A stretch of DNA of 64,000 nucleotides, taken from positions 1,070 through 65,069 of the forward strand of contig CBFHYP010000011.1 of assembly GCA_965660095.1 (NCBI GenBank). The letters are read 5' to 3'. Origin of the DNA: Candidatus Puniceispirillaceae bacterium. GTDB taxonomy: Bacteria > Pseudomonadota > Alphaproteobacteria > Puniceispirillales > Puniceispirillaceae. Under the pieces are notes generated by a model. It made no database searches and was not told where the DNA came from. It saw nothing but the letters and a program-made list of their open reading frames with translations. The position numbers were made by a program, and so were the translations under genes. Positions 22,901 through 61,461 of this stretch are shown here, one piece after another. Each line of letters starts with the position of its first letter. The first letter of the stretch is position 1.

Positions 22901-22982
22901 ATTTAAGTCCCTCTAGCTGACTAAAAGCCACATAAGGGTGAGGCGTGTCGCTTATAAGGTGTCAAGCTAAGTGCGATTGAGA

Positions 22983-23267
22983 TTAGGCATCTCGATTTAA
23001 GCGTTCTTTCATGCCTTTGCCCATTTTGAAAAAAGGCATACGCTTTGCTTCAACGCTAACCGCATCACCTGTTCTAGGGTTGCGTCCAACACGTGCTTTA
23101 CGCTCACGAATAGAAAACGCGCCAAAGCCTCTCAACTCAACTCTGTCCCCATTTACAAGGGCAGTTGTAATCGTATCAAAAACGGTGTTCACCAGATTTT
23201 CAATATCCCTATGATACAGGTCTGGGTTTTGCTCAGCGAGACGGGCAATCAATTCAGATTTAGTCAT
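22983..23267 (-). CDS. ihfB: integration host factor subunit beta
   Basis: 94 aa: [11 protein letters not shown]...[26 protein letters not shown]. Confidence 0.95.
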
Positions 23268-23383
23268 GCTATTTTTTGCCTGCTAGTATTTATACAAATT
23301 TACAGCTTTAAAAATGACCTGTTTTACATTTAAGGTCAAGCTGAATGACCCATTGTCTGAGCTTCAAGCACTATCTAGGGCAT

Positions 23384-23418
23384 AAAAAATCCCCCTAGCA
23401 GTTATCCTGCTAGAGGGA
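23384..23418 (-). terminator. Rho-independent terminator downstream of rpsA
   Basis: On the minus strand the sequence reads CCCTCTAGCAGG-ATAA-CTGCTAGGGGG followed by ATTTTTT. Confidence 0.75.
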
Positions 23419-23443
23419 TTAATCATGTTTCTAGCAATACGCT

Positions 23444-31718: not shown

Positions 31719-32294
31719 TTATAGCTCTAAGGTGCTCACCACATCATCTTGCTCTGGCCGGCGGCGTGGTTTTGGCGGCTCAACGGCCTTACCAACATAA
31801 ATGAAACCTGCGATTTGGTCATGTTCAGTATCGCCGCCTAAAGCATGAAGCATGTTATCATTATAGCTATACCATTCTGTCACCCATTGTGCGCCATACC
31901 CTAATGCTAATGCTGCAGTGAGCAGATTTTGGCACACTGCACCTGCAGAAAGATGCATTTCCCATTGCGGTATTTTGGCATGTGGGGGTGCTTTTGAGAT
32001 AATCGCAAAGATTAGACCGGTTCTGCAAAATCTGTTTTCTTCAAAATCTAGCATAGTCTCTGTTGCATCTGGGTGCAGGCGCAAAAATTCTGGGCGCAAG
32101 ATATGGGTGCCAAGTTTCTGGCGTGTATCGCCGGTGATGATTTTAATATGCCAAGGCCCTAAAACCCCGTGATCAGGCACCCGCAAGCCACATGCAATCA
32201 TATCCTCTATGTCTTGTTGCGGGATATCTGTGGGGCGCAAATTTTTTACAATCACAGAACGGCGTTCTTTTAAAAACGGAATAACTTCAGACAT
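31719..32294 (-). CDS. nitroreductase-family flavoprotein
   Basis: 191 aa. The N-terminal LKERRSV motif and overall pattern fit the nitroreductase fold. Confidence 0.75.
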   Translation of the reverse strand: MSEVIPFLKERRSVIVKNLRPTDIPQQDIEDMIACGLRVPDHGVLGPWHIKIITGDTRQKLGTHILRPEFLRLHPDATETMLDFEENRFCRTGLIFAIISKAPPHAKIPQWEMHLSAGAVCQNLLTAALALGYGAQWVTEWYSYNDNMLHALGGDTEHDQIAGFIYVGKAVEPPKPRRRPEQDDVVSTLEL

Positions 32295-32539
32295 AAGAAA
32301 TCCTTTTCACATCGCTGATTTAAAGCAGGTTATATTGATATGTTTAGCCATCAAAAAAACATCAAGTGCTGTCTATAGCAGAGCTAGGGTGAGGTTAAAA
32401 GGATTTCAATTTTTTTGCTGAACAGATTGTATAAACGCAGCGATAAATGAGACGCCACGCTTTGCGAAGTAGACAGGCAGGACTTGACAAAATATCTTCA
32501 CAATACCAAGTTGAAAGTGGAAAAATAAGGTTTTTAAGT

Positions 32540-32962
32540 GTGACTAATCCAACTAACATTGCAGAGAAGCTTCGGGCATATGGGTTGCGTCCAACACGTC
32601 AACGCGTGTTTCTTGGCCAGCTTTTGTTTGATGGTAGAAACAAGCATATCACCCCTGAAATGATAGCCGATGCGGCAAATGATAGTGGTAAGCATATCGC
32701 ACTTGGTACTATCTATAATAGCCTGCGCCAATTTGCCGAAGCAGGGCTGCTGAAAGAAGTGCATGGTGTGCAAGACCGGCTTGTCTATGATACAAATCTG
32801 CATGAACATCACCATTTTTTAGATGTTGAAACCGGTGAGCTTACAGATGTTCCAGCCGATAAGATTGCACTTTTGGACTTGCCTGAGTTGCCAAACGGGT
32901 TTGGCCTTGATGCTGTTGAGGTTACTATTCGGGTGAAAAAATCATCCCCCTTTTCAGCCTGA
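32540..32962 (+). CDS. irr: Fur-family regulator, Irr (iron response regulator) type
   Basis: Winged-helix region is LRPTRQRVFLGQLLF...GTIYNSLRQFAEAGLL. There are no CxxC zinc motifs, and HEHHHF matches the Irr HHH heme motif. The start is placed at GTG 32540 with AAGG about 10 nt upstream, giving 140 aa. The track ORF starts at 32447. Confidence 0.65.
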   Translation: MTNPTNIAEKLRAYGLRPTRQRVFLGQLLFDGRNKHITPEMIADAANDSGKHIALGTIYNSLRQFAEAGLLKEVHGVQDRLVYDTNLHEHHHFLDVETGELTDVPADKIALLDLPELPNGFGLDAVEVTIRVKKSSPFSA

Positions 32963-33015
32963 TAAAAAACTGTTGTTCTATTAGTTTAAAATCATTTCAA
33001 TCTGCTTGACTTTGA

Positions 33016-35226
<2,211 letters not shown>

Positions 35227-35306: not shown

Positions 35307-36293
35307 TTAAATTCTGCGATGTGCTAGGCTTGGATTATCCAAGGCAGCTGCTGCCCCGCGCAATCCTGAATAGCTATCTTCCATAAGGTAAACAGGCACC
35401 GAGCCGATGAAGTCTGAAAATTTGTCATGCTTCTCAATCCGGTCATAAAATGCGCTTGAAGATAGGAATGGCAATAGCTTTGGGGTTATCCCGCCGCAAA
35501 TAAATACACCCTGCCTTGCCCCGATATGCAGAATAGCAGAAGCAATATAATTCCCTAAAAAATCCAGAAAATATTGAATAGCTAGTTTAGCTTGCGGGAT
35601 ATTATTATGGGCCATTGCGCTAATCTGTGCTGCTTCATTTTCGCTTAATTTTTGTTCTCCCAAATGATTGAATAAACATACAAGCCCCCTGCCGCTAAGC
35701 ACATCTTCAGCCACTAGCCTGTGATGCTGTTCATCTTCGGCTTGGCTTTTTCGGATTCTCATCAATAACTGCTCTTCTGCAGGGGTTTGTGCGGCAAGCC
35801 CGATTTGCCCGCCTTCAGTCTCAAGCGGAAGCATATGGTTCTGGGCAGGGATAAGGGCGGAAAACCCTAGCCCTGTTCCAGGGCCAAGCACCGCAATAGG
35901 GGTGTTTTTATCGCCCTTACCAGCACGCAATACACGGTAAAGAGAGCTCGTTTCATCAGCTAAATCTAAGGTAGTTACCCCAAGAGCCTGGGCTGTAAAA
36001 TCATTGATAACGGTTAATGCATCAAGCCCTAATGCTGCCTTTAAGGCCTGTTTAGAAAAGCCCCAATGATTATTGCTTAACTGCACCTCATCCTGATCAA
36101 CAGTTCCTGCGATAGCAAGACATAGCCTGTGTGGCTTTGATGTAAGATTAAGCGCAGAAGTGACGTGGTGTAAGGCATCTTCAAACGTTTCAAAATCAGC
36201 ACAATATAGCTGAATGGGCGTGCCAATTACCCCCTTTTCAGAAACCGCAAAACGTGCATTAGTGCCGCCAATATCTGCTACAATATCTGTCAT
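35307..36293 (-). CDS. glk: glucokinase
   Basis: N-terminal ADIGGTNARFAV is the ROK-less Glk-family ATP motif. 328 aa. Confidence 0.88.
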   Translation of the reverse strand: MTDIVADIGGTNARFAVSEKGVIGTPIQLYCADFETFEDALHHVTSALNLTSKPHRLCLAIAGTVDQDEVQLSNNHWGFSKQALKAALGLDALTVINDFTAQALGVTTLDLADETSSLYRVLRAGKGDKNTPIAVLGPGTGLGFSALIPAQNHMLPLETEGGQIGLAAQTPAEEQLLMRIRKSQAEDEQHHRLVAEDVLSGRGLVCLFNHLGEQKLSENEAAQISAMAHNNIPQAKLAIQYFLDFLGNYIASAILHIGARQGVFICGGITPKLLPFLSSSAFYDRIEKHDKFSDFIGSVPVYLMEDSYSGLRGAAAALDNPSLAHRRI

Positions 36294-36336
36294 TCAAAAC
36301 CTCTAAAATAGAAAGATGTTCAGCATGGCACTCGTG

Positions 36337-37086
36337 CTATGAGCGTAATGCAGGCAAGCCAACGCCTGTTGCTTCAAACCCGCCATCAGCCGCCAGTACC
36401 TGCCCTGTAATATAGCTGGCTTTGTCTGATGCTAAGAAACAGATTGCTTGTGCGATTTCATCTTCTTGGCCATATCGGTTTAGCGGAATAGCATCATGAT
36501 AAGCATCAATAATATCTTGGGTATGCACTGCCATTGCAAGCTTTGTGCGCACCGGGCCAGGGCAAACACAATTCACTCGAATATTATATTCGCCAAGTTC
36601 GACTGCCTGTTGCAGGGTAAGCTGAATAACAGCTGCTTTTGAAGTGCCATAAGCTACCCTAAGGGTAGAAGCGCGCAACCCAGAAATAGAACCGATATTC
36701 ACAATAGCCCCTTGGGTTTGCTTCAAATAGGGGATGGCTGTCTGTGCGCATAAAAATACCCCATCAAGGTTGGTGCGCATCACTGCCTGCCAACGCTCAA
36801 AATCAGTTTCTTCGATTGGACCAAAATCTGCAACACCTGCATTATTAACCAAAATATCAATCCTGCCGCATTTTTCCATCACTTCCATCATCATGGCAGA
36901 GACGTGGTCAGGTTGTGCGACATCGCATACGATTGGCAACGCGTTTTCGAGCTGTGTAGCAGCGCTAGCTAATTCTGCTTCATCAATATCCACAAGCACA
37001 GGGATGATGCCGTCTTGTGCCATCATTTTAGCTGTAGCAAGCCCTATTCCTCTTGCGGCTCCGGTAATGATTGCTGTTTTTGTCAT
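36337..37086 (-). CDS. SDR-family oxidoreductase
   Basis: Contains TGAARGIG (TGxxxGIG), NNAG and the catalytic YGTSK. 249 aa. Confidence 0.88.
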   Translation of the reverse strand: MTKTAIITGAARGIGLATAKMMAQDGIIPVLVDIDEAELASAATQLENALPIVCDVAQPDHVSAMMMEVMEKCGRIDILVNNAGVADFGPIEETDFERWQAVMRTNLDGVFLCAQTAIPYLKQTQGAIVNIGSISGLRASTLRVAYGTSKAAVIQLTLQQAVELGEYNIRVNCVCPGPVRTKLAMAVHTQDIIDAYHDAIPLNRYGQEDEIAQAICFLASDKASYITGQVLAADGGFEATGVGLPALRS

Positions 37087-37116
37087 TGTTCGACTATGCC
37101 TTTATCTTTACGGGGG

Positions 37117-38214
37117 TTAAAGCTCATTCATTGCGACCACACGTCCTTCGGATGCTGCAATTTGTGCCGCCTGCCCAATTTTAACAGCTTTCATCCCATC
37201 ACTCAGACTAACCAGGGGTGCGGTGTTGTGCTCAAGCATTTCTTTAAAGGCAAGATGCTGAAAATAGGTGGCGCCAGCATGGTCACCTGCAATCATCAAG
37301 GCTTCATCAACATCACAATAAATCGTCTCAATTTTATTGCGTTCGCGCGGGCTGAGTTCAAGCTTTGGGCGCGGCATTTCTGATGTTTCGTCTGACCAAA
37401 AACGCACTGCCCCTGGCACAAACGCTTCTGCCTTGCCATCAACGCCTATTGCCGTGATACGTTCTTGATAGGCTGAACCTTCAGCAAACATGGACAATTC
37501 AAGCATTGCTTTTGTGTGATTATCAAAATCCACAATTACATAGCCATGGTCCCATATATCAGGTGTTTTGCCATTATAGCTTTCATCCTTATGATTATGA
37601 GCTTGGCCTGCAGATGCCATCACCCGAACAGGTTCAGCTTTTAAAATAAGCCGCATCAAATCAAAGAAATGACAGCATTTTTCAACAAAAGTGCCGCCTG
37701 AATAGTGATTAAATCTGTTCCAATCACCAACCTTTTCTAAGAAAGGAAAGCGATGTTCTGTGATGGATAGCATGGAAATACCGCCGCAGAAATCATCTGC
37801 TCTCCGCACTAATTCTGCTATTGGCGGCATGAAGCGATATTCCATCCCCACCCAAATTGGCGCTTTATAATTTTCAATGAGCTTGGTGATAAGCGCAGCA
37901 TCATCAGGGTCTGTATAAAGTGGTTTTTCACACAAGATGGGCAGATTGCGCTGATTTGCAATCTGCTTGAGCTGTTCTGCATGACAAAAATTAGGGCTAG
38001 TGATAATAAGCGCATCTATATTGTCATGTTGCAGAAGAGCGTCTAGCGCGCTGTAAAATTCAGCATCAGGTGCAATTTTAGCTGATTCTGCCTGCATCTT
38101 TGCATCAGGCTCAAATATCGCTGTTACAGCACACCCATCTATCAAATTCAGGTTGCGGATATGTTCTTGGCCCATCATGCCGCATCCTACAAAGCCGTAT
38201 CGTGTCACACCCAT
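37117..38214 (-). CDS. Gfo/Idh/MocA-family oxidoreductase
   Basis: N-terminal Rossmann motif GFVGCGMMG and the EKP motif (CEKPL). 365 aa. Confidence 0.85.
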   Translation of the reverse strand: MGVTRYGFVGCGMMGQEHIRNLNLIDGCAVTAIFEPDAKMQAESAKIAPDAEFYSALDALLQHDNIDALIITSPNFCHAEQLKQIANQRNLPILCEKPLYTDPDDAALITKLIENYKAPIWVGMEYRFMPPIAELVRRADDFCGGISMLSITEHRFPFLEKVGDWNRFNHYSGGTFVEKCCHFFDLMRLILKAEPVRVMASAGQAHNHKDESYNGKTPDIWDHGYVIVDFDNHTKAMLELSMFAEGSAYQERITAIGVDGKAEAFVPGAVRFWSDETSEMPRPKLELSPRERNKIETIYCDVDEALMIAGDHAGATYFQHLAFKEMLEHNTAPLVSLSDGMKAVKIGQAAQIAASEGRVVAMNEL

Positions 38215-38343
38215 TTAATTCTCTTTTTTCTTTGTTGAATTGGCGCTAGCTTGTTACCGTAAAATCAGTATTGTTCATAACTATATAACGCATTACAACT
38301 CACTTCCCCATAGATAATCTTTGCAGATTAAGGAGAAACATTT

Positions 38344-39501
38344 ATGAGTGTCGTACCTATCATGTCAGCGGAATTAGAGGCAAGTGAAGTCTCTTGGTTT
38401 GCTCCACTTTGCTCTGATGATTTCAGATTACTTGGTGTGCCAGAAGGGGAATATCGCAGCTCATGGCAACATACATCTAAGATTATTCAAACAGCAGACA
38501 AGCTAGGGTACCGTAACATCCTATGCCCTTCTTCATATCAGGTAGGCCAAGACACCCTTAGCTTTGTTGCAGGTAATGCCCCCCTAACAGAGCAAATTAA
38601 TATGCTCGCGGCGGTAAGGTGCGGGGAGCTGCATCCCTTAATGCTTGCCAGAACCATCGCTACTTTGGATCATATGCTGTCTGGGCGCTTAACGATTAAT
38701 ATTATTTCATCAGACTTCCCAGGTGAAAAAGCAGAAAGCGCTTTTCGCTATCAGCGCTCGCATGAGGTGGTTGAGATTTTGAAAATGGCTTGGTCACAAG
38801 ATGTGATTAATTATGATGGGGAAATTTACCGCTTTAGCGATGTCTCAACAGACCCTGTGCGCCCCTATCAGCAAAATGGCGGGCCATTGCTTTATTTCGG
38901 TGGGTATTCCCCACCTGCGCTAGAATTGTGCGGCAAACATTGTGATGTGTATCTGATGTGGCCTGAGAAAAAAGAAAATTTAGCCCAACGAATGCAGGCT
39001 GTGCATGAAAGGGCAGAGAAATATGGGCGAGTTCTGGATTATGGTTTGCGGGTGCATATGATTGTCCGTGATACAGAAGCCGAAGCGCGTGAATATGCAG
39101 ATTATCTGGTGAGTAAACTAGATGATGATACAGGCACTGAGATCAGGAACAGAGCGTTAGATGCAACCTCACTTGGGGTTGCACACCAATCTGAAAACAG
39201 GCTTAGCGCTGATGATAAAGGCTATATTGAAGACCATCTATGGACAGGTGTTGGCAGGGCACGCTCTGGCTGCGGGGCTGCCTTAGTGGGGTCAACAGAA
39301 CAAATTTGTGAACAGATTGAGGCGTACCGCAAAATGGGTATTCGCTCGTTCATTTTTTCAGGGTATCCGCATTTGGATGAATGCACACATTTTGGTGAGA
39401 AGGTTTTGCCGCAACTTGCAACCTGTTCCTTGCCTGAAATTTATGGCCGGGTGCCGCAAGAAATGCCTGCAACCCCATTAGGACAGGGAGAGAGACGATG
39501 A
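38344..39501 (+). CDS. LLM-class flavin-dependent monooxygenase, SsuD (alkanesulfonate monooxygenase) family
   Basis: It aligns by eye along its length to E. coli SsuD: LLYFGGYS, GLRVHMIVRDTEAEA, LWTGVGRARSGCGAALVGS and FIFSGYPHLDE. Confidence 0.8.
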   Translation: MSVVPIMSAELEASEVSWFAPLCSDDFRLLGVPEGEYRSSWQHTSKIIQTADKLGYRNILCPSSYQVGQDTLSFVAGNAPLTEQINMLAAVRCGELHPLMLARTIATLDHMLSGRLTINIISSDFPGEKAESAFRYQRSHEVVEILKMAWSQDVINYDGEIYRFSDVSTDPVRPYQQNGGPLLYFGGYSPPALELCGKHCDVYLMWPEKKENLAQRMQAVHERAEKYGRVLDYGLRVHMIVRDTEAEAREYADYLVSKLDDDTGTEIRNRALDATSLGVAHQSENRLSADDKGYIEDHLWTGVGRARSGCGAALVGSTEQICEQIEAYRKMGIRSFIFSGYPHLDECTHFGEKVLPQLATCSLPEIYGRVPQEMPATPLGQGERR

Positions 39502-40415
39502 CCAACTTAGCGGAAAATTCTGTGCACAGAATAGCGTTTGAAGATGGCTTAAGCTTTAGCAGATTAGTCTATGGGATGTGGCGCCTGATTGATGATGGTT
39601 ACAAGGGGGAGGCATCAACACAAGCCAAAATAGAGGCCTGTCTTGAACAAGGTATCACCACGATGGATCAGGCAGATATTTATGGTGATTATGGCTCAGA
39701 AGAAGCGTTTGGAAGAATGCTTGCCACAGCACCGCATCTTAAATCCAAGATTGAGGTGGTGAGTAAATGTGATATCCGCTTGATATCCGATAAATTTCCT
39801 GATCATCGCGTTAAATATTATGATACCAGCGCTGAATATATCACTGCGCAAGTTGAAAATTCGCTTCGTTTGATGGGCTTAGATAGGCTAGATATGCTTT
39901 TGCTTCATCGCCCAGACCCGCTGATGGATCAGTATGAAACAGGGGCGGCGTTAGATAAGCTGATTGAGACGGGGAAAATTCGTTCAGTAGGGGTTTCCAA
40001 TTTTAAGCCTTGGGATATCAGCCTGCTTCAATCTGCGATGCAAACCCCCATTCAGCTTAATCAAATTGAGATTAGCCTGATGGCGCATACCGCGTTTACA
40101 AATGGCGATTTAGCATTTTGTCAAGAACATCATATTGCCCCAATGGCGTGGTCACCACTTGCAGGTGGCCAGCTTTTTAACGGGGAAAACAAAGCCCTTA
40201 CCCAAGTTCTGGAGCGCTATGCAGAACAGCATGAATGCAGTGTGTCCACAATTGCGATAGCATGGCTGCTTGCCCATCCTAGCCAAATCATGCCTGTGTT
40301 AGGAACCAATAATCTGGATAGAATTAAGGATTTCTCCTCTGCCATGTCTGTTGAAATGGATAGGCAAAGTTGGTTTGAGCTGTATGAGGCCGCACTTGGA
40401 AATGAGGTTCCTTAA
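39498..40415 (+). CDS. aldo-keto reductase, YdhF-like
   Basis: FSRLVYGMWRL..., MDQADIYGDYGSEEAFG, LLLHRPDPLMD, GVSNFKPW and NQIEISL closely parallel E. coli YdhF. The ATGA start overlaps the stop of the LLM gene. Confidence 0.85.
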   Translation: MTNLAENSVHRIAFEDGLSFSRLVYGMWRLIDDGYKGEASTQAKIEACLEQGITTMDQADIYGDYGSEEAFGRMLATAPHLKSKIEVVSKCDIRLISDKFPDHRVKYYDTSAEYITAQVENSLRLMGLDRLDMLLLHRPDPLMDQYETGAALDKLIETGKIRSVGVSNFKPWDISLLQSAMQTPIQLNQIEISLMAHTAFTNGDLAFCQEHHIAPMAWSPLAGGQLFNGENKALTQVLERYAEQHECSVSTIAIAWLLAHPSQIMPVLGTNNLDRIKDFSSAMSVEMDRQSWFELYEAALGNEVP

Positions 40416-40458
40416 TTACAGAAAACCACCCCTATCCATCAGCAAAAAGGGCTAGCAT

Positions 40459-41379
40459 ATGACAAGGTTGAAAGTTGGTATGGTGGGGTGCGGTATGGTC
40501 AGCTCTGTCTATATGGACGTGTTTAAGTCCTTATCAGATAGGCTTGAGCTTGTTGGGGTAATCGCATCCAGCTTGCAATCTGCTCAGGATTTCGCCTCAA
40601 AGCATCAGGGTGCAGATTTGCCAAATCTTGCAGGGTTTGAGAGCATTGACGAGATGCTTAAAGCCGAAAAACCTGATTTTATTCTTCTCACCACACCACC
40701 AAATGCGCGTGAAGCCTATATTGAAAGCTGTATCGGGCATAAGCTTCCTGTATTAATGGAAAAGCCTGTAGAACGCGATATTACTGCTGCTACTTCACTT
40801 GTTACACAATGCGAGAGGGCAAAGCTGTCTTTGGGGGTGATGTTACAGCACCGCGCGCGCCCCTCAGCCCTTGCGCTACGTGAGCAGCTAGAAGCGCATG
40901 ATGCAGGACCATTGCATGCCGTTGAAATCACAGTGCCTTGGTGGCGAGAGCAAAGCTATTATGACGTGCCAGGGCGCGGCAGTTATGGGCGAGACGGGGG
41001 CGGGGTGATGATCAGCCAAGCCATCCATACCCTTGATTTAGTACTGCAATTCACCTCTGAGGTTTCAGGCGTATCTAGCTACCGGGCAACAACGGGGTTC
41101 CACCGGATGGAGGCAGAAGATTTTGTCTCAGCAGGGATTGCATTTTCAGGTGGTGCGCATGGTCATTTAATGGCGTCCACAGCCTGTTTTCCTGGCAGAG
41201 CAGAAGAATTTTGGCTGCATTTTAAACATGCTTCCTTCAATGTGCAATCCGCCCAATTAGAGGTGTTTACACAAGCCAGCCACCCGCGTGGCGCTAGCCA
41301 GTATAAAATAGGGGATGTTGCGGCAACGGACAACATGCGCCCTAACTGGCCTTTACCTCAGATTGGCATAAAGCCATGA
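40459..41379 (+). CDS. Gfo/Idh/MocA-family oxidoreductase, 3' end apparently frameshifted
   Basis: Contains VGMVGCGMV and MEKPV motifs. The ORF stops at 41379 without the usual C-terminal helix segment, which is encoded in another frame just downstream. Confidence 0.8.
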   Translation: MTRLKVGMVGCGMVSSVYMDVFKSLSDRLELVGVIASSLQSAQDFASKHQGADLPNLAGFESIDEMLKAEKPDFILLTTPPNAREAYIESCIGHKLPVLMEKPVERDITAATSLVTQCERAKLSLGVMLQHRARPSALALREQLEAHDAGPLHAVEITVPWWREQSYYDVPGRGSYGRDGGGVMISQAIHTLDLVLQFTSEVSGVSSYRATTGFHRMEAEDFVSAGIAFSGGAHGHLMASTACFPGRAEEFWLHFKHASFNVQSAQLEVFTQASHPRGASQYKIGDVAATDNMRPNWPLPQIGIKP

Positions 41380-41497
41380 TTGAAAATTTTATGGATCATC
41401 TTGAAAATGGCGCCCCGTTAATTGCTTCTGGCCGTTCCGCTTTAAAGGTGCATCATCTTATTGATCAGATTGAAAAAGCCTCATTTAAAAAAGGCTA
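41346..41497 (+). pseudogene. detached C-terminal segment of the preceding Gfo/Idh/MocA gene, in the -1 frame
   Basis: The frame starting at 41346 reads LAFTSDWHKAMIENFMDHLENGAPLIASGRSALKVHHLIDQIEKASFKKG*. This is the canonical Gfo/Idh/MocA C-terminal region. An in-frame TAA lies at 41343-41345. Confidence 0.6.
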
Positions 41498-41530
41498 AAC
41501 ACCGGCGTTGCTAAAAAGACAGGAAAGAAA

Positions 41531-42559
41531 ATGACAGATTTCAAACAGCTAACAATTGGTGTTCTAGGCATCGATCATGCGCATATTCATGGGATGCTTG
41601 GCAATATGTTGACACAAGGATGCCAGGCTAAATATTGGTGGACAGATGGTCAGCCCAATACCCAAACAGCGTTTGAAAATGCGTTTCCTCAGTTACAGAA
41701 AGTAGCGGAGAAAAATCAAATTCTTGACGATCCAGATATTGATATGGTGCTCATCTCAGCCGTACCAGTGGACAGGGCAGGGCTAGCTATTGAAGCGATG
41801 CGTGCTGGTCAGGATGTGATGGTGGATAAGCCAGGATGTACCACCCAAGAACAGCTTGAAAGCCTGCGTGCGGCGGTTGCAGAAACAGGACGTATTTGGA
41901 CGGTGAATTTTTCAGAAAGGTTTGAGGTGCCAAGTGCTGCCAAAGCAGAACAGCTTGTTGAAGAAGGCGCGATTGGCAAGGTTATTCAAACCCTTGGCAC
42001 AGGCCCACATCGTCAAGGGCTTGCAAGCCGCCCAGAATGGTTTTTTAGGCGGGAGGCTTTTGGCGGGATTATTACTGATATTGGCTCACACCAAATTGAC
42101 CAATTTCTCTATTTCACCGGCTCTGATAAGGTGAAAATTGCCCATGCGCTAGTTGAAAATACAACACTGCCACACCATCCAGAAGTGCAGGATTTTGGTG
42201 AAATTGTCCTGCATGGGGATAAAGGGCATGGCTATATTCGGGTAGACTGGTTTACCCCGGAGGCGTTGCCAGTTTGGGGCGATGGTAGGCTAACGATTTT
42301 AGGTGAAGAGGGATATATTGAATTACGCAAATATATTGATGTTGGTCATGGCGGGCTAGCAAATCAGCTGATTTATGCCAACCATAAAACAGTGGAGCAT
42401 ATTGATTGCCGTGATACGCCTTTGCCTTATTTTCCGCGTTTATGTGAAGATATTTTAAACAGAACAGAAACAGCCGTATCTCAAGAACACACCTTTAAAG
42501 TGATGGCACTTGCGCTGGAAGCTCAGAAGATGGCAGAGGAAGCAGTTTCATGGGATTAG
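41531..42559 (+). CDS. Gfo/Idh/MocA-family oxidoreductase
   Basis: 342 aa with VDKPG in place of EKP and a typical C-terminal alpha/beta domain. It overlaps the next gene. Confidence 0.8.
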   Translation: MTDFKQLTIGVLGIDHAHIHGMLGNMLTQGCQAKYWWTDGQPNTQTAFENAFPQLQKVAEKNQILDDPDIDMVLISAVPVDRAGLAIEAMRAGQDVMVDKPGCTTQEQLESLRAAVAETGRIWTVNFSERFEVPSAAKAEQLVEEGAIGKVIQTLGTGPHRQGLASRPEWFFRREAFGGIITDIGSHQIDQFLYFTGSDKVKIAHALVENTTLPHHPEVQDFGEIVLHGDKGHGYIRVDWFTPEALPVWGDGRLTILGEEGYIELRKYIDVGHGGLANQLIYANHKTVEHIDCRDTPLPYFPRLCEDILNRTETAVSQEHTFKVMALALEAQKMAEEAVSWD

Positions 42560-43608
42560 CGGTTGCTATTTTGGGGGCAGGGATAGGCGCAGAACATCTG
42601 CAAGGCTATCGTCAGCTAGAAGATGATTTCCAGGTTAAGGCGATTTGCGATATTAATGCACAAAGAGCAGGGTTGCTTGCCGCTGACAGCGATATTGCTA
42701 TCTTCTCAGATTATCAGGAAATCCTATCTGACCCGCAGATAGATATTGTTGATATTTGCTTGCCGCCTCACCTGCATTTCAGCGCGATATCTGAAGTGTT
42801 ACATGCAGGCAAGGATGTGATTTGTGAAAAGCCGCTTCTAGCCTCTTGTGCGGAATGTGACCAGATAGAAGCCTTATCTTTGCAAACCGGTAAACAGGTT
42901 TTTCCTGTTTTTCAATATCGGTTTGGCAAAGGGGCTAGCCAGCTTCATGCGCTTATGAAATGCGGTCTTGCAGGCAAAGCCTATACCGCGACCTTGGAAA
43001 CCCACTGGAATAGAGATGCCGCCTATTACGATAATGACTGGCGCGGCACCTGGGCAGGTGAGCAAGGCGGGGCTATTCTTGGCCATGCTATCCATATTCA
43101 TGACTGGGTGTGTCATATTTTAGGGCCTGTATCACAGGTTTTTGCGTTGCTAGATACGCGGGTAAATGACATTGAGGTGGAAGATTGCGCGGCGCTCTCA
43201 TTGCGGATGCAAAATGGGGCGTTGGTCACAAGTTCTGTGACGCTTGGCAGTGCAGATGACTTTTCACGACTGCGTTTTTGCTTTGAAGGCTTTACAGCAG
43301 AATCAGATATTCTCCCCTATACGCCTGCTCAAGGGGTATGGCGTTTTACAGCGCGTGCGCCTTATCACCAGCAAGATATTGATGCGCGACTAGCTGAAAT
43401 TCAGTACCAAGATTATGCAGGATATGCCGGGCTTTTCCATGAAATCGCAAAAGCTTTGAGAGGTGAGAGCCATCAGGCAGTATTGCTAAGCGATGCTCGA
43501 AATTCGCTTGAATTGGTGACGGCTATTTATCAATCCGCTAGGACTTTACAAGCGGTTAGCTTACCGCTAACACCACAAGATAAAGGGTATGATAGCTGGT
43601 TGCCCTGA
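42550..43608 (+). CDS. Gfo/Idh/MocA-family oxidoreductase
   Basis: Contains ILGAGIGAEH and CEKPL. 352 aa. Confidence 0.85.
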   Translation: MGLAVAILGAGIGAEHLQGYRQLEDDFQVKAICDINAQRAGLLAADSDIAIFSDYQEILSDPQIDIVDICLPPHLHFSAISEVLHAGKDVICEKPLLASCAECDQIEALSLQTGKQVFPVFQYRFGKGASQLHALMKCGLAGKAYTATLETHWNRDAAYYDNDWRGTWAGEQGGAILGHAIHIHDWVCHILGPVSQVFALLDTRVNDIEVEDCAALSLRMQNGALVTSSVTLGSADDFSRLRFCFEGFTAESDILPYTPAQGVWRFTARAPYHQQDIDARLAEIQYQDYAGYAGLFHEIAKALRGESHQAVLLSDARNSLELVTAIYQSARTLQAVSLPLTPQDKGYDSWLP

Positions 43609-43697
43609 GAATAATTTTTTCTATTACTAGCGATGATTTAAAATAGGCGCAAAAATGGCGCTGCCAAAACGTTAATACGAGCTAGAAATAGGCAGAT

Positions 43698-44618
43698 ATG
43701 ACCCAGCAATCACCCCAACCGCCAGTAATGTCAGATAATCTGCATAGCGCTATTTTGACAATATTATCTTCTTTTGTCTTTACCATTAATGATGCGCTGA
43801 TGAAGCTTATTCTATTTGAATATGAGCTTTTTTTTGCCCTGCTGATAAGAGGGGTATTTGCCCTTCCAATACTTATCCTCTTATGCATGTATGAGCGGAT
43901 GCTATTTGTGCGTCTTGGTGGACGGGATTGGATGTTAGTGTTTGGGCGCGCATGCTGTGAAGTTGGTCTTGCTTATTGTTTGCTGACAGCGTTGATGCAA
44001 ATGCCGCTTGCAACCTTAACAGCATTGTTGCAGTCCTCTCCTTTATTTCTTTCGCTTATTGCCTTTATCTTTTTTGGCGAGCGGTTCAAATGGCGGCGAT
44101 GGGTAGCGCTAGGGGTAGGATATGTTGGGGTTTTGATTATTATCCGGCCATCTGAGGCAATGAGCCTATCTGCTGCATTTTTTGGCATAGCATCGGTGGG
44201 TTTCATCGTTGCAAGAGATAGTTTCTCACGGCTATTTTCACCACAAGTACCAACACTGTTCCCTGCCTTAATCAATGTCATGGCTGTCATGATATTTGCA
44301 GGGTTATTGGCAGATAGCTGGCATCTTGACCAGCTGATAAGCTGGCAGATAAGCTGGCCACCCATGTATATGATTTTAGCCTTTGCAGGGGCTGCATTAA
44401 CTATCATTATCGCCAATATGCTGGTGGTTGCGATGATGCGCAAAGGGGATATCGGTTTTGTGAGCCAATTTAGATATTCTGCAATTCTATTCTCGCTTGT
44501 TGCAGGCTATTTCCTATTTGGAGAATGGCCAGATATTATCACCTTTTTTGGCGCAGCACTTGTGATAGCAGCAGGGCTATATAGCTTTGCACGCGAGCGG
44601 CAGGCCCAACATGCCTAA
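43698..44618 (+). CDS. DMT-superfamily (EamA-like) transporter
   Basis: About 10 hydrophobic segments in two EamA-like halves. 306 aa. Confidence 0.75.
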   Translation: MTQQSPQPPVMSDNLHSAILTILSSFVFTINDALMKLILFEYELFFALLIRGVFALPILILLCMYERMLFVRLGGRDWMLVFGRACCEVGLAYCLLTALMQMPLATLTALLQSSPLFLSLIAFIFFGERFKWRRWVALGVGYVGVLIIIRPSEAMSLSAAFFGIASVGFIVARDSFSRLFSPQVPTLFPALINVMAVMIFAGLLADSWHLDQLISWQISWPPMYMILAFAGAALTIIIANMLVVAMMRKGDIGFVSQFRYSAILFSLVAGYFLFGEWPDIITFFGAALVIAAGLYSFARERQAQHA

Positions 44619-45639: not shown

Positions 45640-46992
45640 ATGTCTTTAACCACAAAAATGTTTGGTGCTGCAACGGCGTTTGTTGCCGCATCATTCGCGT
45701 TTTCAGGCAGTGCGCTAGCTGATGGTCACGTCTGTGATACCCCATCAAAGCTTTCTGCTGATTTAGGAAGTTTCCAAGGTGAAGTGATCACCATTGCAGG
45801 TTCCATGCAAGGCAAGGATGAAGAAAACCTGCTTGCGACCGTAAGCTGCTTTGAGAAAGCAACAGGGGCAGTTGTTAAATATTCAGGTTCACGCGATTTT
45901 GCGGCATTAATCGTTGCAGACCTTCAGTCAAACAATGCGCCAAATATTGCGATTTTCCCGCAGCCAGGTCTAGCAGGTGATATGGCAAAAGAGGGTTATC
46001 TTTCGCCATTGGGAAGCGGGCTTTCAGATTGGATGACCAATAATTACGGTGCGGGTTCTTCTTGGGTTGATCTTGGCACCTATACCGGCCAAGACGGCAA
46101 GGACGCATTTTATGGCTTTGCATTCAAGCAAGACCTGAAATCACTGGTGTGGTATTCACCTGAGCAGTTTGAAGATAATGGCTATGAAATTCCAACAACA
46201 ATGGAAGAGCTGATTGCCCTATCTGATCAGATGGTTGCTGATGGCAATACACCGTGGTGTATTGGTGTTGAATCAGGCAATGCAACAGGCTGGACAGCAA
46301 CAGACTGGATGGAAGATTTAATGCTTCGCACAGCCTCACCTGAAAAATATGACCAGTGGGTATCAAACGAGCTTCCATTTAATAGCCCTGAAGTGCTAAA
46401 TGCAATGGAAGTGTATGGTCAGTTCTCACGCAATGATGATTATGTTGCAGGTGGTTCTGCTGCGGTAGCAACAACCTTCTTCGGTGATGCCCCTAAGGGT
46501 CTGTTTACTTCACCAGCACAATGTATGATGCACCGTCAGGCTTCATTCATTCCTGCATTCTTCCCGAAAAAAGGTGAAGAAGTGGCAGCTGGCGAAGCAG
46601 ATTTCTTCTACTTCCCACCATTTGCATCAGCAAATCTAGGTAATCCAGTGCTTGGTGCAGGTACATTATACACTATCACCAAGGATTCTGCTGCAACACG
46701 TGCATTCTTCCAGTATCTAACTGAAGCTAAGGCACATGAGGTGTGGATGTCACAAGGTGCGTTCCTAACAGCGAATAAAAATGCTGATTTGTCTGCCTAT
46801 GCATCTGATGCACAGCGCAAGCAGGGTGAAATTTTGGTGAATGCAACTACCTTCCGTTTTGATGCGTCTGATTTAATGCCAGGGGCAATCGGTGCAGGTG
46901 CATTCTGGAGCGAAATGACAGCCTTTGCAAATGGCCAAGATGCAAAAACAACAGCTGATAATATTCAAGCTGCTTGGGATGCGATTAAGTAG
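45640..46992 (+). CDS. aglE: alpha-glucoside ABC transporter substrate-binding protein
   Basis: Family-1 solute-binding protein with a signal peptide and a GGAGGAG RBS. It is the first gene of a block ordered SBP, permease, permease, GH13, ATPase, identical to Sinorhizobium aglEFGAK. Confidence 0.7.
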   Translation: MSLTTKMFGAATAFVAASFAFSGSALADGHVCDTPSKLSADLGSFQGEVITIAGSMQGKDEENLLATVSCFEKATGAVVKYSGSRDFAALIVADLQSNNAPNIAIFPQPGLAGDMAKEGYLSPLGSGLSDWMTNNYGAGSSWVDLGTYTGQDGKDAFYGFAFKQDLKSLVWYSPEQFEDNGYEIPTTMEELIALSDQMVADGNTPWCIGVESGNATGWTATDWMEDLMLRTASPEKYDQWVSNELPFNSPEVLNAMEVYGQFSRNDDYVAGGSAAVATTFFGDAPKGLFTSPAQCMMHRQASFIPAFFPKKGEEVAAGEADFFYFPPFASANLGNPVLGAGTLYTITKDSAATRAFFQYLTEAKAHEVWMSQGAFLTANKNADLSAYASDAQRKQGEILVNATTFRFDASDLMPGAIGAGAFWSEMTAFANGQDAKTTADNIQAAWDAIK

Positions 46993-47020
46993 TTATTTTG
47001 CAAAGACACTATCTCATGAA

Positions 47021-47045
47021 AGAGTGCGGGTTTCGCTCGCACTCT
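47021..47045 (+). other. intra-operon hairpin after the SBP gene
   Basis: 8-bp stem AGAGTGCG / CGCACTCT with a 9-nt loop, followed by a T-rich tract. Confidence 0.5.
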
Positions 47046-47106
47046 TCTCTATTCTTTAAAGACGTGTATATAAAACATTTATTCAGAATATTCACGGAAT
47101 CAAAAC

Positions 47107-48357
47107 ATGCGTTCGATTAAGCCGCTCATTGCTGGAAATGGAATAGCGATATTCCTCACAGTGGTGTGTCTACTGCCCCTTACAGCTATTTTTGCGCTTG
47201 CGGCAACGGCGCCGCTGGACGGGCTTATGGCTAATTTTGGCATGTGGTTGCATGATGTCTTTAGCTGGTCTGCTTCTGAATTTGATACCCAAGCGCGCTT
47301 CTCGAAAATTGGCTTTGCCATTCGTATCGTAACGATTTCCGTCGGTATTTCATTTCTGTATTTTGGTGTGAGCAACTGGCTGACCTTGGGGCTAGCGCGC
47401 AGAACTGCCAAAAGCTCCCCTGGCAAACAATCTGCAATTATCGAAGCTATTCAGCCTTGGATTTTTGTTGGTCCTGCTTTGATGCTATTATTGCTGTTTT
47501 TATTGGTTCCAGGATTTTTAACCTTAAAACAATCCATGCAAGAAGCGAGCGGCACCTTTAGTTTTCAAAATTATGCTTTTTTATGGGACCCTACTGCTTT
47601 GGGCTATGTGCAATTTAGGTTTGCCATGCGGAACAGCCTTATGTGGCTGATATTGGTGCCAACAGCTTGCATATCGTTGGGGCTGTTAATTGCGGTGCTT
47701 GCTGATTCATTGCGCTGGGGTGTGATTGCAAAAACCTTTATTTTTGTGCCATTGGCGATTTCTTTTGTAGGGGCTGCGGTTATTTGGCGAAATATTTTTG
47801 CAGGCGGCGGTATTGAATCCCTGCAAGCGATTAATGGGGCAACACCCTCATATCAAGTGGGGTTAATGAAGGCGTTGCTTGGCCATACTGCTGCCTATAA
47901 TGAGCCTTTATATAATTTGAAATTCTGGGGTAATTTCTTTTTGATGTGGATTTTAGTCTGGGTTCAAACTGGCTTTGCGATGGTGATTTTTTCAGCTGCT
48001 TTGCGCGGCGTGCCACAAGATACCATTGAAGCGGCAACCATTGATGGGGCTAATCCGTTTCAGATGTTCTTCTATGTGAAACTGCCACAAATCTATTCAA
48101 CGGTCATGGTAGTATGGACCACTTTGGTTATTTTGGTTTTGAAAGTCTTTGATATTCCATATGCCTTATCTGCGAATGATGATGATAAATTATTGCTGGC
48201 GGTGATGATGGAAAATGCCCGCAATAACTGGTCTATTGGTGGTGATAATGTCGATAATTTATTTGCGGCTATTGCGGTGATGTTAATGCTTACTGTTGTT
48301 CCAAACATGGTCTTTAATGCATGGCGTATTCGCCGTGAGCAAAAAGATTTAAGTTAA
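47107..48357 (+). CDS. aglF: alpha-glucoside ABC transporter permease
   Basis: MalF-type permease with the EAA-like loop IEAATIDGANPFQMFFYVKLP. 416 aa. Confidence 0.7.
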   Translation: MRSIKPLIAGNGIAIFLTVVCLLPLTAIFALAATAPLDGLMANFGMWLHDVFSWSASEFDTQARFSKIGFAIRIVTISVGISFLYFGVSNWLTLGLARRTAKSSPGKQSAIIEAIQPWIFVGPALMLLLLFLLVPGFLTLKQSMQEASGTFSFQNYAFLWDPTALGYVQFRFAMRNSLMWLILVPTACISLGLLIAVLADSLRWGVIAKTFIFVPLAISFVGAAVIWRNIFAGGGIESLQAINGATPSYQVGLMKALLGHTAAYNEPLYNLKFWGNFFLMWILVWVQTGFAMVIFSAALRGVPQDTIEAATIDGANPFQMFFYVKLPQIYSTVMVVWTTLVILVLKVFDIPYALSANDDDKLLLAVMMENARNNWSIGGDNVDNLFAAIAVMLMLTVVPNMVFNAWRIRREQKDLS

Positions 48358-48374
48358 GAAAAGAGCTTTTCAGC

Positions 48375-49601: not shown

Positions 49602-49604
49602 TTG

Positions 49605-51155: not shown

Positions 51156-51156
51156 A

Positions 51157-56980: not shown

Positions 56981-57049
56981 GATGATTTCTTTCTGGATTT
57001 GGGCAATAGAAAATTAGACTTGTCAAACCTGTAATTATTCTTCTACCAT

Positions 57050-57069
57050 TTTTGCATAGGTATGCAAAA
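57050..57069. promoter_or_regulatory. 20-bp near-perfect palindrome, candidate LacI-family operator
   Basis: TTTTGCATA-GG-TATGCAAAA has 9-bp perfect arms. It lies in the 120-bp divergent intergenic region, just downstream of a TTGTCA (57020)...TACCAT (57044) promoter-like pair. Confidence 0.5.
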
Positions 57070-57100
57070 TTCGTTTTGTCATGTGGGAAAGCAGAACAAT

Positions 57101-61457: not shown

Positions 61458-61461
61458 TGTA

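Follow-up and report, generated by a model that had tools for sequence, protein, structure and literature searches.

A rearranged SqgA-type sulfo-SMO gene cluster predicted in a Puniceispirillaceae (SAR116) genome

The sulfo-SMO system for sulfoquinovose (SQ), the sulfosugar of plants and algae, was founded on the smoABCDEFGHI genes (Atu3277-3285) of Agrobacterium tumefaciens C58 (Sharma et al. 2022, PMC8795539). Clusters that combine sqgA, smoC and smoB and contain no GH31 gene have also been documented (Kaur 2023, PMC10755693; Ma 2025, PMC12780224), and a GH188 SqgA in place of the GH31 enzyme is described as near-universal among Roseobacter-clade SMO clusters. The GH188 supplementary list already includes SAR116/Puniceispirillum SqgA homologues, and current surveys regard a genome as sulfo-SMO-positive when SmoB and SmoC are co-localised.

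In the window, by which we mean the whole 64-kb stretch of DNA analysed, positions 35307-44618 are best read, with a probability of about 85%, as a sulfolytic, SqgA-type sulfo-SMO cluster carried by a marine bacterium of the Puniceispirillaceae (SAR116). SmoC and ribosomal protein S1 of this genome show 82% and 91% identity, respectively, to proteins of Ca. Puniceispirillaceae MAGs. The enzymes SqgA, SmoC and SmoB were identified from sequence, and the activities ascribed to them are predictions from characterised orthologues. The system itself has been published before (release of SQ from its glycosides, removal of the sulfonate as sulfite and recovery of glucose); the present locus is a rearranged copy with a few extra genes. 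An initial annotation of this DNA had described the combination as different from the described smo cluster and unassigned. The cluster does differ from published SMO clusters in its accessory genes, lacking smoA, gntR and TRAP genes and carrying an SDR gene, glk, a Gfo trio and a DMT gene, but "unassigned" was too strong, as SqgA-type SMO clusters have been published.

Gene layout of the locus

The ORF coordinates in the cluster agree exactly with those of the initial annotation, and the family of each gene was confirmed with Pfam and NCBIfam. The genes, overlaps, gaps and broken Gfo gene claimed there were all recovered, including the 129-bp divergent region, the ATGA coupling of the LLM and AKR genes (smoC and smoB) and the overlap between two Gfo genes, which measures 10 nt (GfoX2/GfoX3). 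The features are as follows.

31719-32294, minus strand: nitroreductase-fold protein, a weak candidate for an NAD(P)H:flavin reductase and the only one in the window
32447-35226, plus strand: Fur-family regulator and catalase-peroxidase KatG, a conserved neighbour outside the pathway proper
35307-36293, minus strand: glk, glucokinase, at the end of the sqgA-SDR-glk string
36337-37086, minus strand: SDR-family oxidoreductase, between sqgA and glk (Pfam adh_short_C2, 240 bits)
37117-38214, minus strand: sqgA, predicted NAD+-dependent sulfoquinovosidase (GH188), 365 aa
38215-38343, no strand: 129-bp divergent intergenic region between sqgA and smoC, from ORF coordinates and sequence
38344-39501, plus strand: smoC, predicted FMNH2-dependent sulfoquinovose monooxygenase, 385 aa
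39498-40415, plus strand: smoB, predicted NADPH-dependent 6-oxo-glucose reductase (AKR), 305 aa
40459-41498, plus strand: GfoX1, Gfo/Idh/MocA oxidoreductase by family match, frameshifted (40459-41379 and 41376-41498)
41531-42559, plus strand: GfoX2, Gfo/Idh/MocA oxidoreductase by PDB matches, with the atypical N-terminal loop GVLGIDHAHIHG
42550-43608, plus strand: GfoX3, Gfo/Idh/MocA oxidoreductase by PDB matches
43698-44618, plus strand: DMT/EamA permease, at the end of the plus-strand string (PF00892, two stretches)
45640-52215, plus strand: ABC sugar importer (SBP, two permeases of 408-416 aa, ATPase) with an embedded GH13_23 alpha-glucosidase, a block whose place near smoCB is kept in SAR116 relatives

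The genes behind smoB and those behind sqgA are co-directional and are separated by gaps of 30-90 bp or overlap. No promoter-like site is reported inside 38215-38343, sites across the region being no commoner than in shuffles, and sequence conservation of this interval was not seen past the closest relative.

The clustering of sqgA, smoC and smoB is not due to chance. Among the genome loci recovered through SmoC (comparison loci are given L numbers), smoC and smoB are adjacent in all seven, with sqgA also present in five (L001-L005) and not detected in the remaining two (L006 and L007). In the plasmid and metagenome loci examined, the three genes also stand next to one another. The smoC-smoB adjacency extends over loci from Puniceispirillaceae, Granulosicoccaceae, Primorskyibacter, Oceaniradius, Rhizobium, Ruegeria and Marinovum, with sqgA alongside except in L006 and L007.

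Core enzymes and the proposed route

Comparison of the LLM protein with SmoC, SsuD, MsuD and SfnG by bit scores placed SmoC far ahead. The protein aligns ungapped over residues 1-384 with the SmoC structures of A. tumefaciens (7olf) and R. oryzae (7oh2) at 652 bits, against 208 bits for MsuD, 195 for SsuD and 103 for SfnG. All seven named active-site residues (W206, R236, H238, Y341, H343, Y136 and S189; PMC8795539) are present, in agreement with the SmoC-like identity first proposed for it. The AKR likewise proved SmoB-like: it matches the SmoB structures 7bbz/7bby at 361 bits versus 217-229 bits for YdhF-type AKRs, and 10/10 named residues (D71, Y76, K104, K120, H151, R152, W232, F241, N285 and R289; window numbering n-14) are kept (PMC8795539).

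It had also been suggested that one of the four Gfo/Idh/MocA paralogues is an NAD+-dependent sulfoquinovosidase. Comparison of each with that family points to the minus-strand protein, SqgA, which matches RdSqgA of Roseobacter denitrificans (8zn9) at 480 bits and FlSqgA and ArSqgA (8qc2/8qc3) at 337-341 bits; the next PDB match after the SqgA structures reaches only 67 bits. The seven catalytic and sulfonate-binding residues of RdSqgA (K98, Y127, R156, L160, K162, E179 and H183; window numbering n-1) are all kept, and the motif EHRFPFLEK is identical in the two proteins. The GxGxxG loop is included only if the 365-aa start is taken. RdSqgA has been shown to hydrolyse sulfoquinovosyl glycerol (SQGro) and SQDG, and the window SqgA is predicted to cleave SQ glycosides such as SQGro to free SQ. 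In alignments, the sulfonate-binding loop of SqgA is absent from GfoX1, GfoX2 and GfoX3.

The proposed route would begin with the import of SQ glycosides, chiefly SQGro, for which the candidates are the DMT permease and the ABC system next to the cluster. SqgA would free SQ through the GH188 NAD+-dependent mechanism (oxidation, elimination, hydration and reduction). SmoC, with FMNH2 and O2, would then cut the C6-S bond to give 6-oxo-glucose and sulfite, SmoB would reduce 6-oxo-glucose to glucose with NADPH, and Glk would convert glucose to glucose-6-phosphate. The FMNH2 would probably come from a flavin reductase encoded beyond the cluster. The glucokinase assignment (PF02685, 271 bits; TIGR00749, 208 bits, under the cutoff of 225) bears out the claim of a glucokinase clustered with SmoC and SmoB that would complete the route. 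The glk gene holds the same position in L009 and L016 and not in other SMO loci. The neighbouring SDR is 77-81% conserved in L009 and L016; its best PDB match is a 2,3-butanediol dehydrogenase (164 bits), and no sulfoquinovose dehydrogenase appeared among its PDB matches at E<=1e-40.

Accessory genes and alternative readings

The Pfam scan of all window ORFs of at least 150 aa detected no GH31 enzyme, PF01613/PF03358 flavin reductase or regulator in the cluster, and tblastn queries with SmoA, GntR and DctP gave no match, so the absence of a flavin reductase, GH31 enzyme and regulator from the cluster, as initially annotated, was upheld. No SmoA-type or SsuE-type flavin reductase was found anywhere in the 64-kb window. 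The nitroreductase-fold protein that had been put forward as a weak candidate is indeed the only one in the window and a weak one (PF00881, 69 bits; 85 bits on a YdjA-type model with a cutoff of 183), and it is syntenic in L009 only. Most of the other SMO loci examined have an adjacent smoA gene.

The ABC system noted downstream of the cluster was confirmed and contains a GH13 gene. The block lies directly after smoB in the SAR116 relatives L012-L014, with its five genes 74-91% identical, and the importer is a possible carrier of SQ or SQGro. Its SBP is not SmoF-like, the best PDB match being AcbH at 41 bits, and no homologue of the SmoEFGH transporter (searched via the SBP SmoF) or of the TRAP system of Roseobacter was found. 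The window GH13 protein matches 6aav at 452 bits and HaG (3wy1) at 430 bits and falls in the HaG/XgtA group, the subfamily of MsGH13, the GH13_23 enzyme of the Marinovum SMO cluster, which was tested and found inactive on PNPSQ (Li et al. 2023, bioRxiv 10.1101/2023.03.31.535182). As the same-subfamily MsGH13 is not a sulfoquinovosidase, such a role appears unlikely for the window GH13. The Fur-KatG pair borders the SQ genes both in the window and in L009, and comes after the ABC ATPase in L012-L014.

The frameshift claimed for the first plus-strand Gfo gene is real. The 40 C-terminal amino acids of GfoX1 lie in another frame (41376-41498), while L009 and four near-identical contigs from other samples (L021-L024) carry it unbroken, with 346 aa. 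Relative to those four contigs, the window sequence at 41328-41346 is scrambled and 1 nt shorter overall; the frameshift may be an assembly error. GfoX2 is closest to structural-genomics proteins without assigned function (3u3x and 2p2s, 296-303 bits). GfoX3 matches 3q2k/3q2i best (96-103 bits) and the SqgA structures at just 29-32 bits. The trio most likely represents an independent sugar or cyclitol oxidoreductase module, inserted 3' of smoB in one SAR116 sublineage, because it also stands alone in unrelated contexts: in the same order and without smo genes it accompanies IclR, GH88 and ABC-system genes in Celeribacter, adjoins a LysR gene in a gammaproteobacterial MAG and, in other places, is surrounded by housekeeping genes. 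It adjoins smoB only where GfoX2 identity is at least 73%. The DMT permease, which may import SQ or export sulfite or another product, accompanies the trio only in the smoB-linked loci, being kept after it in L009, L016 and L021 and absent from other SMO loci.

It is unlikely that the trio, the SDR and the DMT permease are instead working parts of sulfosugar catabolism in this sublineage. Their roles might then be to convert a related 6-anionic sugar or glycoside to SQ or glucose, to give 6-oxo-glucose a second fate or to handle the aglycone, with the DMT protein as SQ importer or sulfite exporter. The tight co-directional spacing behind smoB fits co-transcription and shared function, and the whole arrangement is kept in four lineages (window, L021-24, L009-11 and L016). 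The SMO cluster of Marinovum algicola has an extra dehydrogenase, 40% identical to GfoX1, and an esterase after smoA; GfoX1 and GfoX3 weakly match glucuronide 3-dehydrogenase (8tdi, 48-61 bits); and the GH88 uronyl hydrolase beside the Celeribacter trio hints at C6-anionic sugars. Against these observations stand the autonomy of the trio, its absence from most SMO clusters, including those of other Puniceispirillaceae (L001, L012-14), the broken GfoX1 of the window genome itself and the lack of the sulfonate loop in all three proteins. Moreover, the loci that link trio and smoB all fall in a single SmoC clade (90% or more), and their linkage thus reflects one event.

Still less probable is a decaying or incomplete locus, in which the pathway would be non-functional because a flavin reductase, dedicated transporter and regulator are missing and one gene is frameshifted. 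Although no SmoA homologue is present, relatives L012-14 likewise lack an adjacent smoA, and two-component monooxygenases can draw on unlinked flavin reductases, as established for SsuD-type systems. The frameshift affects an accessory gene only; SqgA, SmoC, SmoB and Glk are complete in length and have kept every functional residue, and assemblies of several independent samples yielded genes that are the same or nearly so. A classical SsuD-type alkanesulfonate sulfur-scavenging enzyme lying by chance near sugar oxidoreductases, or an inositol or anhydro-sugar cluster, is effectively refuted by the NCBIfam cutoffs and the structure matches of SmoC, SmoB and SqgA. Alkanesulfonate monooxygenase is the best NCBIfam name for the LLM protein, but it scores 255 bits on the SsuD equivalog model against a cutoff of 518 and is about three times closer to SmoC, and ssuE and ssuABC are absent. 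Several Gfo proteins have weak IolG or levoglucosan-dehydrogenase matches, yet the IolG and LgdA matches are all far under their cutoffs, and iolB, iolC, iolD, iolE and lgdB are absent.

Comparison with known systems

The sulfo-SMO clusters of the Roseobacter/Rhizobium type (R. denitrificans OCh 114, the Ruegeria sp. TM1040 megaplasmid and the Rhizobium sp. SL42 plasmid) share with the window the divergent arrangement of sqgA and smoC-smoB, the absence of GH31 and the conservation of all functional residues (PMC10755693, PMC12780224). SmoC is 72-74% and SmoB 56-57% identical to the proteins of these clusters, and SqgA shares 53-55% identity with its Rhizobium and Marinovum counterparts. In contrast to the window, they have gntR beside sqgA, smoA right after smoB, TRAP dctQMP genes and a putative sulfate-exporter-family gene; in the window, sqgA is instead followed by the SDR and glk genes and smoB by the Gfo trio and the DMT gene, with the ABC/GH13 block nearby.

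A. tumefaciens C58 has SmoC and SmoB orthologues and the same proposed chemistry, but the window encodes a GH188 SqgA rather than the GH31 SmoI, lacks SmoA, SmoD and SmoEFGH, has an SBP unrelated to SmoF by sequence and includes a glucokinase in the cluster. The Marinovum sp. cluster (Li et al. 2023, 10.1101/2023.03.31.535182) places smoC and smoB near an ABC importer with a GH13_23 gene, as do L012-L014, whereas in the window that block lies about 5 kb from smoB, with the Gfo trio, the DMT gene and a CoxG-like gene between, and the SmoA encoded in Marinovum has no counterpart. The ssuEADCB system of Escherichia coli also uses a two-component FMNH2-dependent LLM enzyme to release sulfite from a sulfonate and shares sulfonate- and FMN-binding residues; it differs in its SsuD, which the window protein matches at only 195 bits, in having SsuE and SsuABC, and in serving sulfur scavenging rather than the sugar carbon catabolism predicted here. 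The sulfo-SDO pathway of Marinomonas and Alteromonas (SqoD; PMC10507154, PMC12780224) follows the same course from SQ to 6-oxo-glucose and sulfite and on to glucose, and can pair with SqgA, but its C-S cleavage is performed by an Fe/alpha-ketoglutarate dioxygenase, while the window encodes the putative flavin-dependent SmoC.

Core genes and predicted route

The ORF map of the initial annotation was reproduced exactly, and the family of each gene was confirmed with Pfam and NCBIfam models. Two divergent strings of genes are separated by a 129-bp gap between sqgA and smoC.

Genes of the locus (window coordinates, strand, family)
35307-36293, minus strand, glucokinase (glk)
36337-37086, minus strand, SDR
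37117-38214, minus strand, Gfo/Idh/MocA protein, predicted sqgA
38344-39501, plus strand, LLM monooxygenase, predicted smoC
39498-40415, plus strand, aldo-keto reductase, predicted smoB, joined to smoC by an ATGA overlap
40459-41379, plus strand, GfoX1 (Gfo/Idh/MocA), broken, with its remainder in another frame at 41376-41498
41531-42559, plus strand, GfoX2 (Gfo/Idh/MocA)
42550-43608, plus strand, GfoX3 (Gfo/Idh/MocA)
43698-44618, plus strand, EamA/DMT permease

The locus had been read as a candidate sulfoquinovose (SQ) desulfonation system, and this interpretation is supported by matches to characterised SmoC (SQ monooxygenase), SmoB (6-oxo-glucose reductase) and SqgA (GH188 NAD+-dependent sulfoquinovosidase) together with their conserved residues. 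When the LLM protein was compared with SmoC, SsuD, MsuD and SfnG, SmoC was clearly the nearest. The alignment with the SmoC structures from A. tumefaciens (7OLF) and Rhizobium oryzae (7OH2) is ungapped over residues 1-384 and scores 652 bits, against 208 bits for MsuD, 195 for SsuD and 103 for SfnG. The sulfonate- and FMN-binding residues of SmoC have been named by Sharma et al. (PMC8795539), and W206, R236, H238, Y341 and H343 as well as the FMN phosphate residues Y136 and S189 are all found in the window protein under the same numbering (seven of seven). Classical SsuD identity was rejected, as the TIGR03565 model gave 254.7 bits against an equivalog cutoff of 518.2, and a Pfam scan of the cluster detected no ssuE-type reductase or ssuABC-type transporter genes flanking smoC. 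The aldo-keto reductase is likewise SmoB-type, with 361 bits to SmoB (7BBZ/7BBY) compared with 217-229 bits to YdhF-type enzymes, and it keeps all ten residues compared, namely the D71/Y76/K104/H151 tetrad, the glucose contacts K120 and R152, and W232, F241, N285 and R289.

The suggestion that one Gfo/Idh/MocA paralogue serves as an NAD+-dependent sulfoquinovosidase is borne out for the gene at 37117-38214 by its GH188 matches and residues. Its product scores 480 bits to RdSqgA (8ZN9) and 341 and 337 bits to FlSqgA and ArSqgA (8QC2/8QC3), and the next PDB match after the SqgA structures falls to 67 bits. FlSqgA and ArSqgA are the founding GH188 enzymes (PMC10755693), while RdSqgA of Roseobacter denitrificans OCh 114 is encoded upstream of an SMO cluster and hydrolyses sulfoquinovosyl glycerol (SQGro) and SQDG with NAD+ (PMC12780224). 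The RdSqgA residues K98, Y127, R156, L160, K162, E179 and H183 correspond to K97, Y126, R155, L159, K161, E178 and H182 of the window protein (seven of seven kept), the sulfonate-binding triad R166/L170/K172 of ArSqgA is matched, and the sulfonate loop EHRFPFLEK is identical to that of RdSqgA. A Rossmann dinucleotide-binding loop (GCGMMG) occupies residues 10-15 of the 365-aa ORF. GfoX1-3 were rejected as a second SqgA, with at most 32 bits to the SqgA structures and no R-x3-L-x-K sulfonate loop.

On the NCBI contig SqgA is called as a 353-aa protein (P0245) that starts at M13 (window 38179-38214) and loses the GxGxxG loop. For the 365-aa ORF, alignment with RdSqgA begins at residue 3. The annotation of the Rhizobium sp. 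SL42 SqgA begins at the same internal methionine (MMGQEH...).

Together these proteins would form a short route to central metabolism. SQGro or SQ would be imported by a candidate carrier, and SqgA would free SQ via transient C3 oxidation by its bound NAD+. SmoC would then use FMNH2 and O2 to convert SQ to 6-oxo-glucose and sulfite, SmoB would reduce 6-oxo-glucose to glucose with NADPH, and Glk would yield glucose-6-phosphate. The SqgA, SmoC and SmoB assignments are predictions from sequence identity to characterised enzymes and from the residues shared with them, and we infer the activities, the induction, the FMNH2 source and the transport steps of the route.

Relatives, surroundings and absent partners

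Judged by its best named matches, the window probably comes from a SAR116-family MAG. Its ribosomal protein S1 is 91% identical to a protein from a Candidatus Puniceispirillaceae MAG, and the nearest species-representative genome with a SmoC relative (82% identity) is also in the Puniceispirillaceae. Relatives of SmoC are very numerous, at least 7985 reaching E<=1e-100 among the 8000 candidates scored. The smoC-smoB pair is adjacent in loci of the Puniceispirillaceae, Granulosicoccaceae, Primorskyibacter, Oceaniradius, Rhizobium, Ruegeria and Marinovum, and sqgA lies beside it throughout, save in one of the four Granulosicoccaceae loci (L006) and in the Oceaniradius locus (L007), where no sqgA was detected. 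The extended layout of the window is kept in four near-identical contigs (L021-L024, GfoX2 99% identical), in L009-L011 (SmoC 90%) and in L016 (SmoC 91%). Three SAR116 relatives (L012-L014) are arranged differently: the divergent sqgA and smoC-smoB are followed by the ABC/GH13 block (74-91% identical to that of the window) and then by Fur and katG. They carry no trio (GfoX1-X3), DMT, SDR, glk or smoA, and the regulator is a LacI gene after smoB in L013 and L014 and a GntR gene adjoining sqgA in L012. At another locus, L001, pyruvate kinase follows smoB, and smoA and a TRAP system lie some kb away. Across the loci only the sqgA-smoC-smoB core is stable and its periphery is plastic; plasticity of the transporters across SMO clusters was pointed out earlier by Sharma et al. 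(PMC8795539).

Compared with L009, its nearest relative in synteny, the window has diverged very unevenly. Identity is 97% for the SBP, 93% for a permease and 90% for both KatG and SmoC, and it drops to 64% for Glk, 61% for GfoX1, 68% for Fur and 72% for GfoX3. Such unevenness within 20 kb suggests recombination or very different constraints. Between its DMT and CoxG-like genes, L009 further carries a gene of the histone-deacetylase family, which is missing from the window.

The ABC importer described 1 kb downstream of the cluster is present and includes a GH13 gene. Because its adjacency to smoCB is conserved in relatives, the ABC system is a candidate SQ/SQGro importer. Its SBP was rejected as a SmoF orthologue: SmoF was not among its PDB matches at E<=0.001, of which AcbH ranked first with 41 bits. 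No homologue of the SmoEFGH importer or of the Roseobacter TRAP transporter was found in the window. The system (45640-49601) is atypical, with a 450-aa SBP (45640-46992) that hits none of the Pfam SBP families at E<=0.001 and unusually long permeases (416 and 408 aa) in which BPD_transp_1 is confined to the C-terminal half. The GH13 protein (49602-51155) belongs to GH13_23 (452 bits to 6AAV, 430 to HaG 3WY1) and by analogy with MsGH13 of the same subfamily is probably not a hidden sulfoquinovosidase. MsGH13, encoded with an ABC transporter in a Marinovum SMO cluster, is a broad alpha-glucosidase inactive on PNPSQ (Li et al. 2023, bioRxiv 10.1101/2023.03.31.535182).

A Pfam scan of every window ORF of at least 150 aa (GH31, PF01613, PF03358) agreed with the earlier statement that the cluster encodes no GH31 enzyme, flavin reductase or regulator. 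A tblastn search of the 64-kb window with two proteins of the flavin reductase SmoA returned no match (best E=2), and the same search found SmoA in L001, L002, L004, L006, L007, L019 and L020. GntR, DctP and the sulfate-exporter-family gene were also not detected by tblastn in the 64-kb window, and a LacI-like fragment at 63140-63952 has merely 27% identity to the L013 regulator. The sole flavin reductase candidate within the window is a weak one, the nitroreductase-fold protein at 31719-32294, which scores 85 bits to the YdjA model against a cutoff of 183 and is syntenic in the closest relative only. Promoter and terminator scans gave site counts no higher than in shuffled sequences, the 129-bp intergenic region showed no operator conservation past the closest relative, and an Rfam search of the window returned two tRNAs and nothing else.

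Several other neighbours deserve mention. Peroxide-defence genes were seen repeatedly beside sulfo-SMO clusters. A Fur-family regulator and katG flank the SQ genes in the window (32447-35226) and L009 (4223-6914) and follow the ABC ATPase in L012 (19020-21158), L013 (20461-21158) and L014. A peroxiredoxin follows the ABC ATPase on the Marinovum algicola DG 898 plasmid pMaD9 (L028, 21289-21825), and the SMO cluster of Ruegeria TM1040 includes a cytochrome c peroxidase (L020, 16843-18072). Hydrogen peroxide from uncoupled FMNH2/O2 chemistry is a possible basis of this linkage. Further downstream, at 55994-63068, three SnoaL-domain proteins (328, 180 and 355 aa, two with tandem SnoaL) are grouped around another ABC importer (ATPase, SBP and two permeases), and L012 has a 371-aa SnoaL protein and an amidohydrolase near its SMO genes.

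The Gfo/Idh/MocA trio

The frameshift reported for the first plus-strand Gfo gene is real, the C-terminal 40 residues of GfoX1 being encoded in another frame (41376-41498). The gene is intact (346 aa) on the four near-identical contigs from independent samples, from which the window differs by a scrambled 18-nt patch at 41328-41346 (nearly every position different, net -1 nt) that breaks GfoX1, and by a GGG/TAC codon at 40735-40737. The break may be an assembly error at this site, or it may mark a true pseudogene; in L025 GfoX1 is split too.

Elsewhere GfoX1-X2-X3 occur in the same order, with 50-69% identity and no smo genes. The Celeribacter copy is accompanied by IclR, GH88, an ABC system and a fourth Gfo gene, that of a gammaproteobacterial MAG adjoins a LysR gene, another contig has the trio between housekeeping genes, and on a further contig GfoX1 is broken. 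Adjacency to smoB is confined to loci whose GfoX2 has 73% or higher identity, as would fit one insertion event in a single sublineage. The simplest interpretation is that the trio is an autonomous oxidoreductase module. Its integration in SQ catabolism is the rival explanation, and a tight, co-directional spacing behind smoB, an extended layout kept across four lineages, and a GfoX1-like dehydrogenase (40% identity) with an esterase after smoA on pMaD9 all speak for it; set against the occurrences without smo genes, we regard such integration as unlikely. A broader proposal, that in one SAR116 sublineage sulfo-SMO is extended by a sulfosugar-acting trio, the SDR and the DMT with no dedicated flavin reductase, appears improbable. 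In one version a second C6-anionic sugar (sulfofucose-like or another sulfoquinovoside) would become a SmoC substrate by oxidoreductive epimerisation or deglycosylation, in the other 6-oxo-glucose would take a new route, and either version would make the DMT a new carrier of SQ or sulfite.

The link to inositol or anhydro-sugar catabolism that the initial annotation had named as a counter-explanation was not seen. Assignment of the extra Gfo genes to the IolG, LgdA or BT_2158/2159 families was rejected, with 20-116 bits far under cutoffs of 355-750, and the cluster holds no Iol/Lgd partner genes or xylose-isomerase-like lyase. The nearest structures to GfoX2, 3U3X and 2P2S, have no assigned function, and a search of the literature on them turned up nothing relevant. 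The SDR is generic, and its best matches, BudC and FabG-like proteins, lend no support to a role as a sulfo-ED SQ dehydrogenase. Glucokinase matches the pathway product glucose and is not a conserved gene of SMO clusters elsewhere.

The trio spans 40459-43608 in the window, 8007-11090 in L015, 2034-5216 in L026, 7952-11093 in L027 and 2140-5420 in L025. Its hosts are marine Alpha- and Gammaproteobacteria with unrelated gene contexts, and X2 and X3 overlap as a rule. GfoX2 has an atypical N-terminal loop (GxxGxDHAHxHG), its only structure matches being the unannotated 3U3X and 2P2S. On pMaD9 an acetyl esterase and the GfoX1-like dehydrogenase lie between smoA and the ABC transporter (14566-16579), and a second LLM gene, paired with one for a flavin reductase, is located 1.5 kb downstream of that transporter (22757-24844). 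The extra genes may be additional, undescribed genes for processing SQ derivatives.

Comparison with described sulfo-SMO systems

To date, Roseobacteraceae (SMO) and Alteromonadaceae (SDO, the dioxygenase counterpart) have been credited with most of the marine SQ turnover. Here a bacterium of SAR116, an abundant group, has, as read from its genes, a complete-looking SqgA-SmoC-SmoB-Glk route within a family whose periphery is highly plastic, with TRAP and SmoA in one relative, ABC and GH13 in others, and the Gfo trio and DMT in the window. This has a modest bearing on the taxon assignment of environmental smoC and sqgA reads, and it bears on survey rules that demand smoA. No new chemistry is revealed, and the one element left to explain is the widespread Gfo/Idh/MocA module of three genes.

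The system at the core of the finding is known, since its elements have already been published. According to Kaur et al. (2023, PMC10755693), GH188 SqgA takes the place of GH31 in SMO clusters and is nearly always present in those of the Roseobacter clade, and their supplementary GH188 list includes SAR116-cluster and Ca. Puniceispirillum entries. RdSqgA has been characterised, and sqgA and smoC have been mapped in Tara Oceans data (Ma et al. 2025, PMC12780224). The Marinovum cluster is described by Li et al., and a 2026 survey counts a genome as sulfo-SMO-positive when SmoB and SmoC co-localise, with SmoA not required. Judged by its sequence, the locus is a published SqgA-type sulfo-SMO cluster in a SAR116-family genome with a lineage-specific periphery, and the residual novelty lies in the Gfo trio, the DMT, the SDR and the missing dedicated flavin reductase. 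In the canonical SqgA-type cluster of the Rhizobium sp. SL42 plasmid and the Ruegeria TM1040 megaplasmid, sqgA-gntR diverges from smoC-smoB-smoA-dctQMP, followed by a sulfate-exporter-family gene. In the window, sqgA is followed instead by the SDR and glk, and smoB by the Gfo trio and the DMT permease, with an ABC importer and GH13 gene 1 kb past the DMT.
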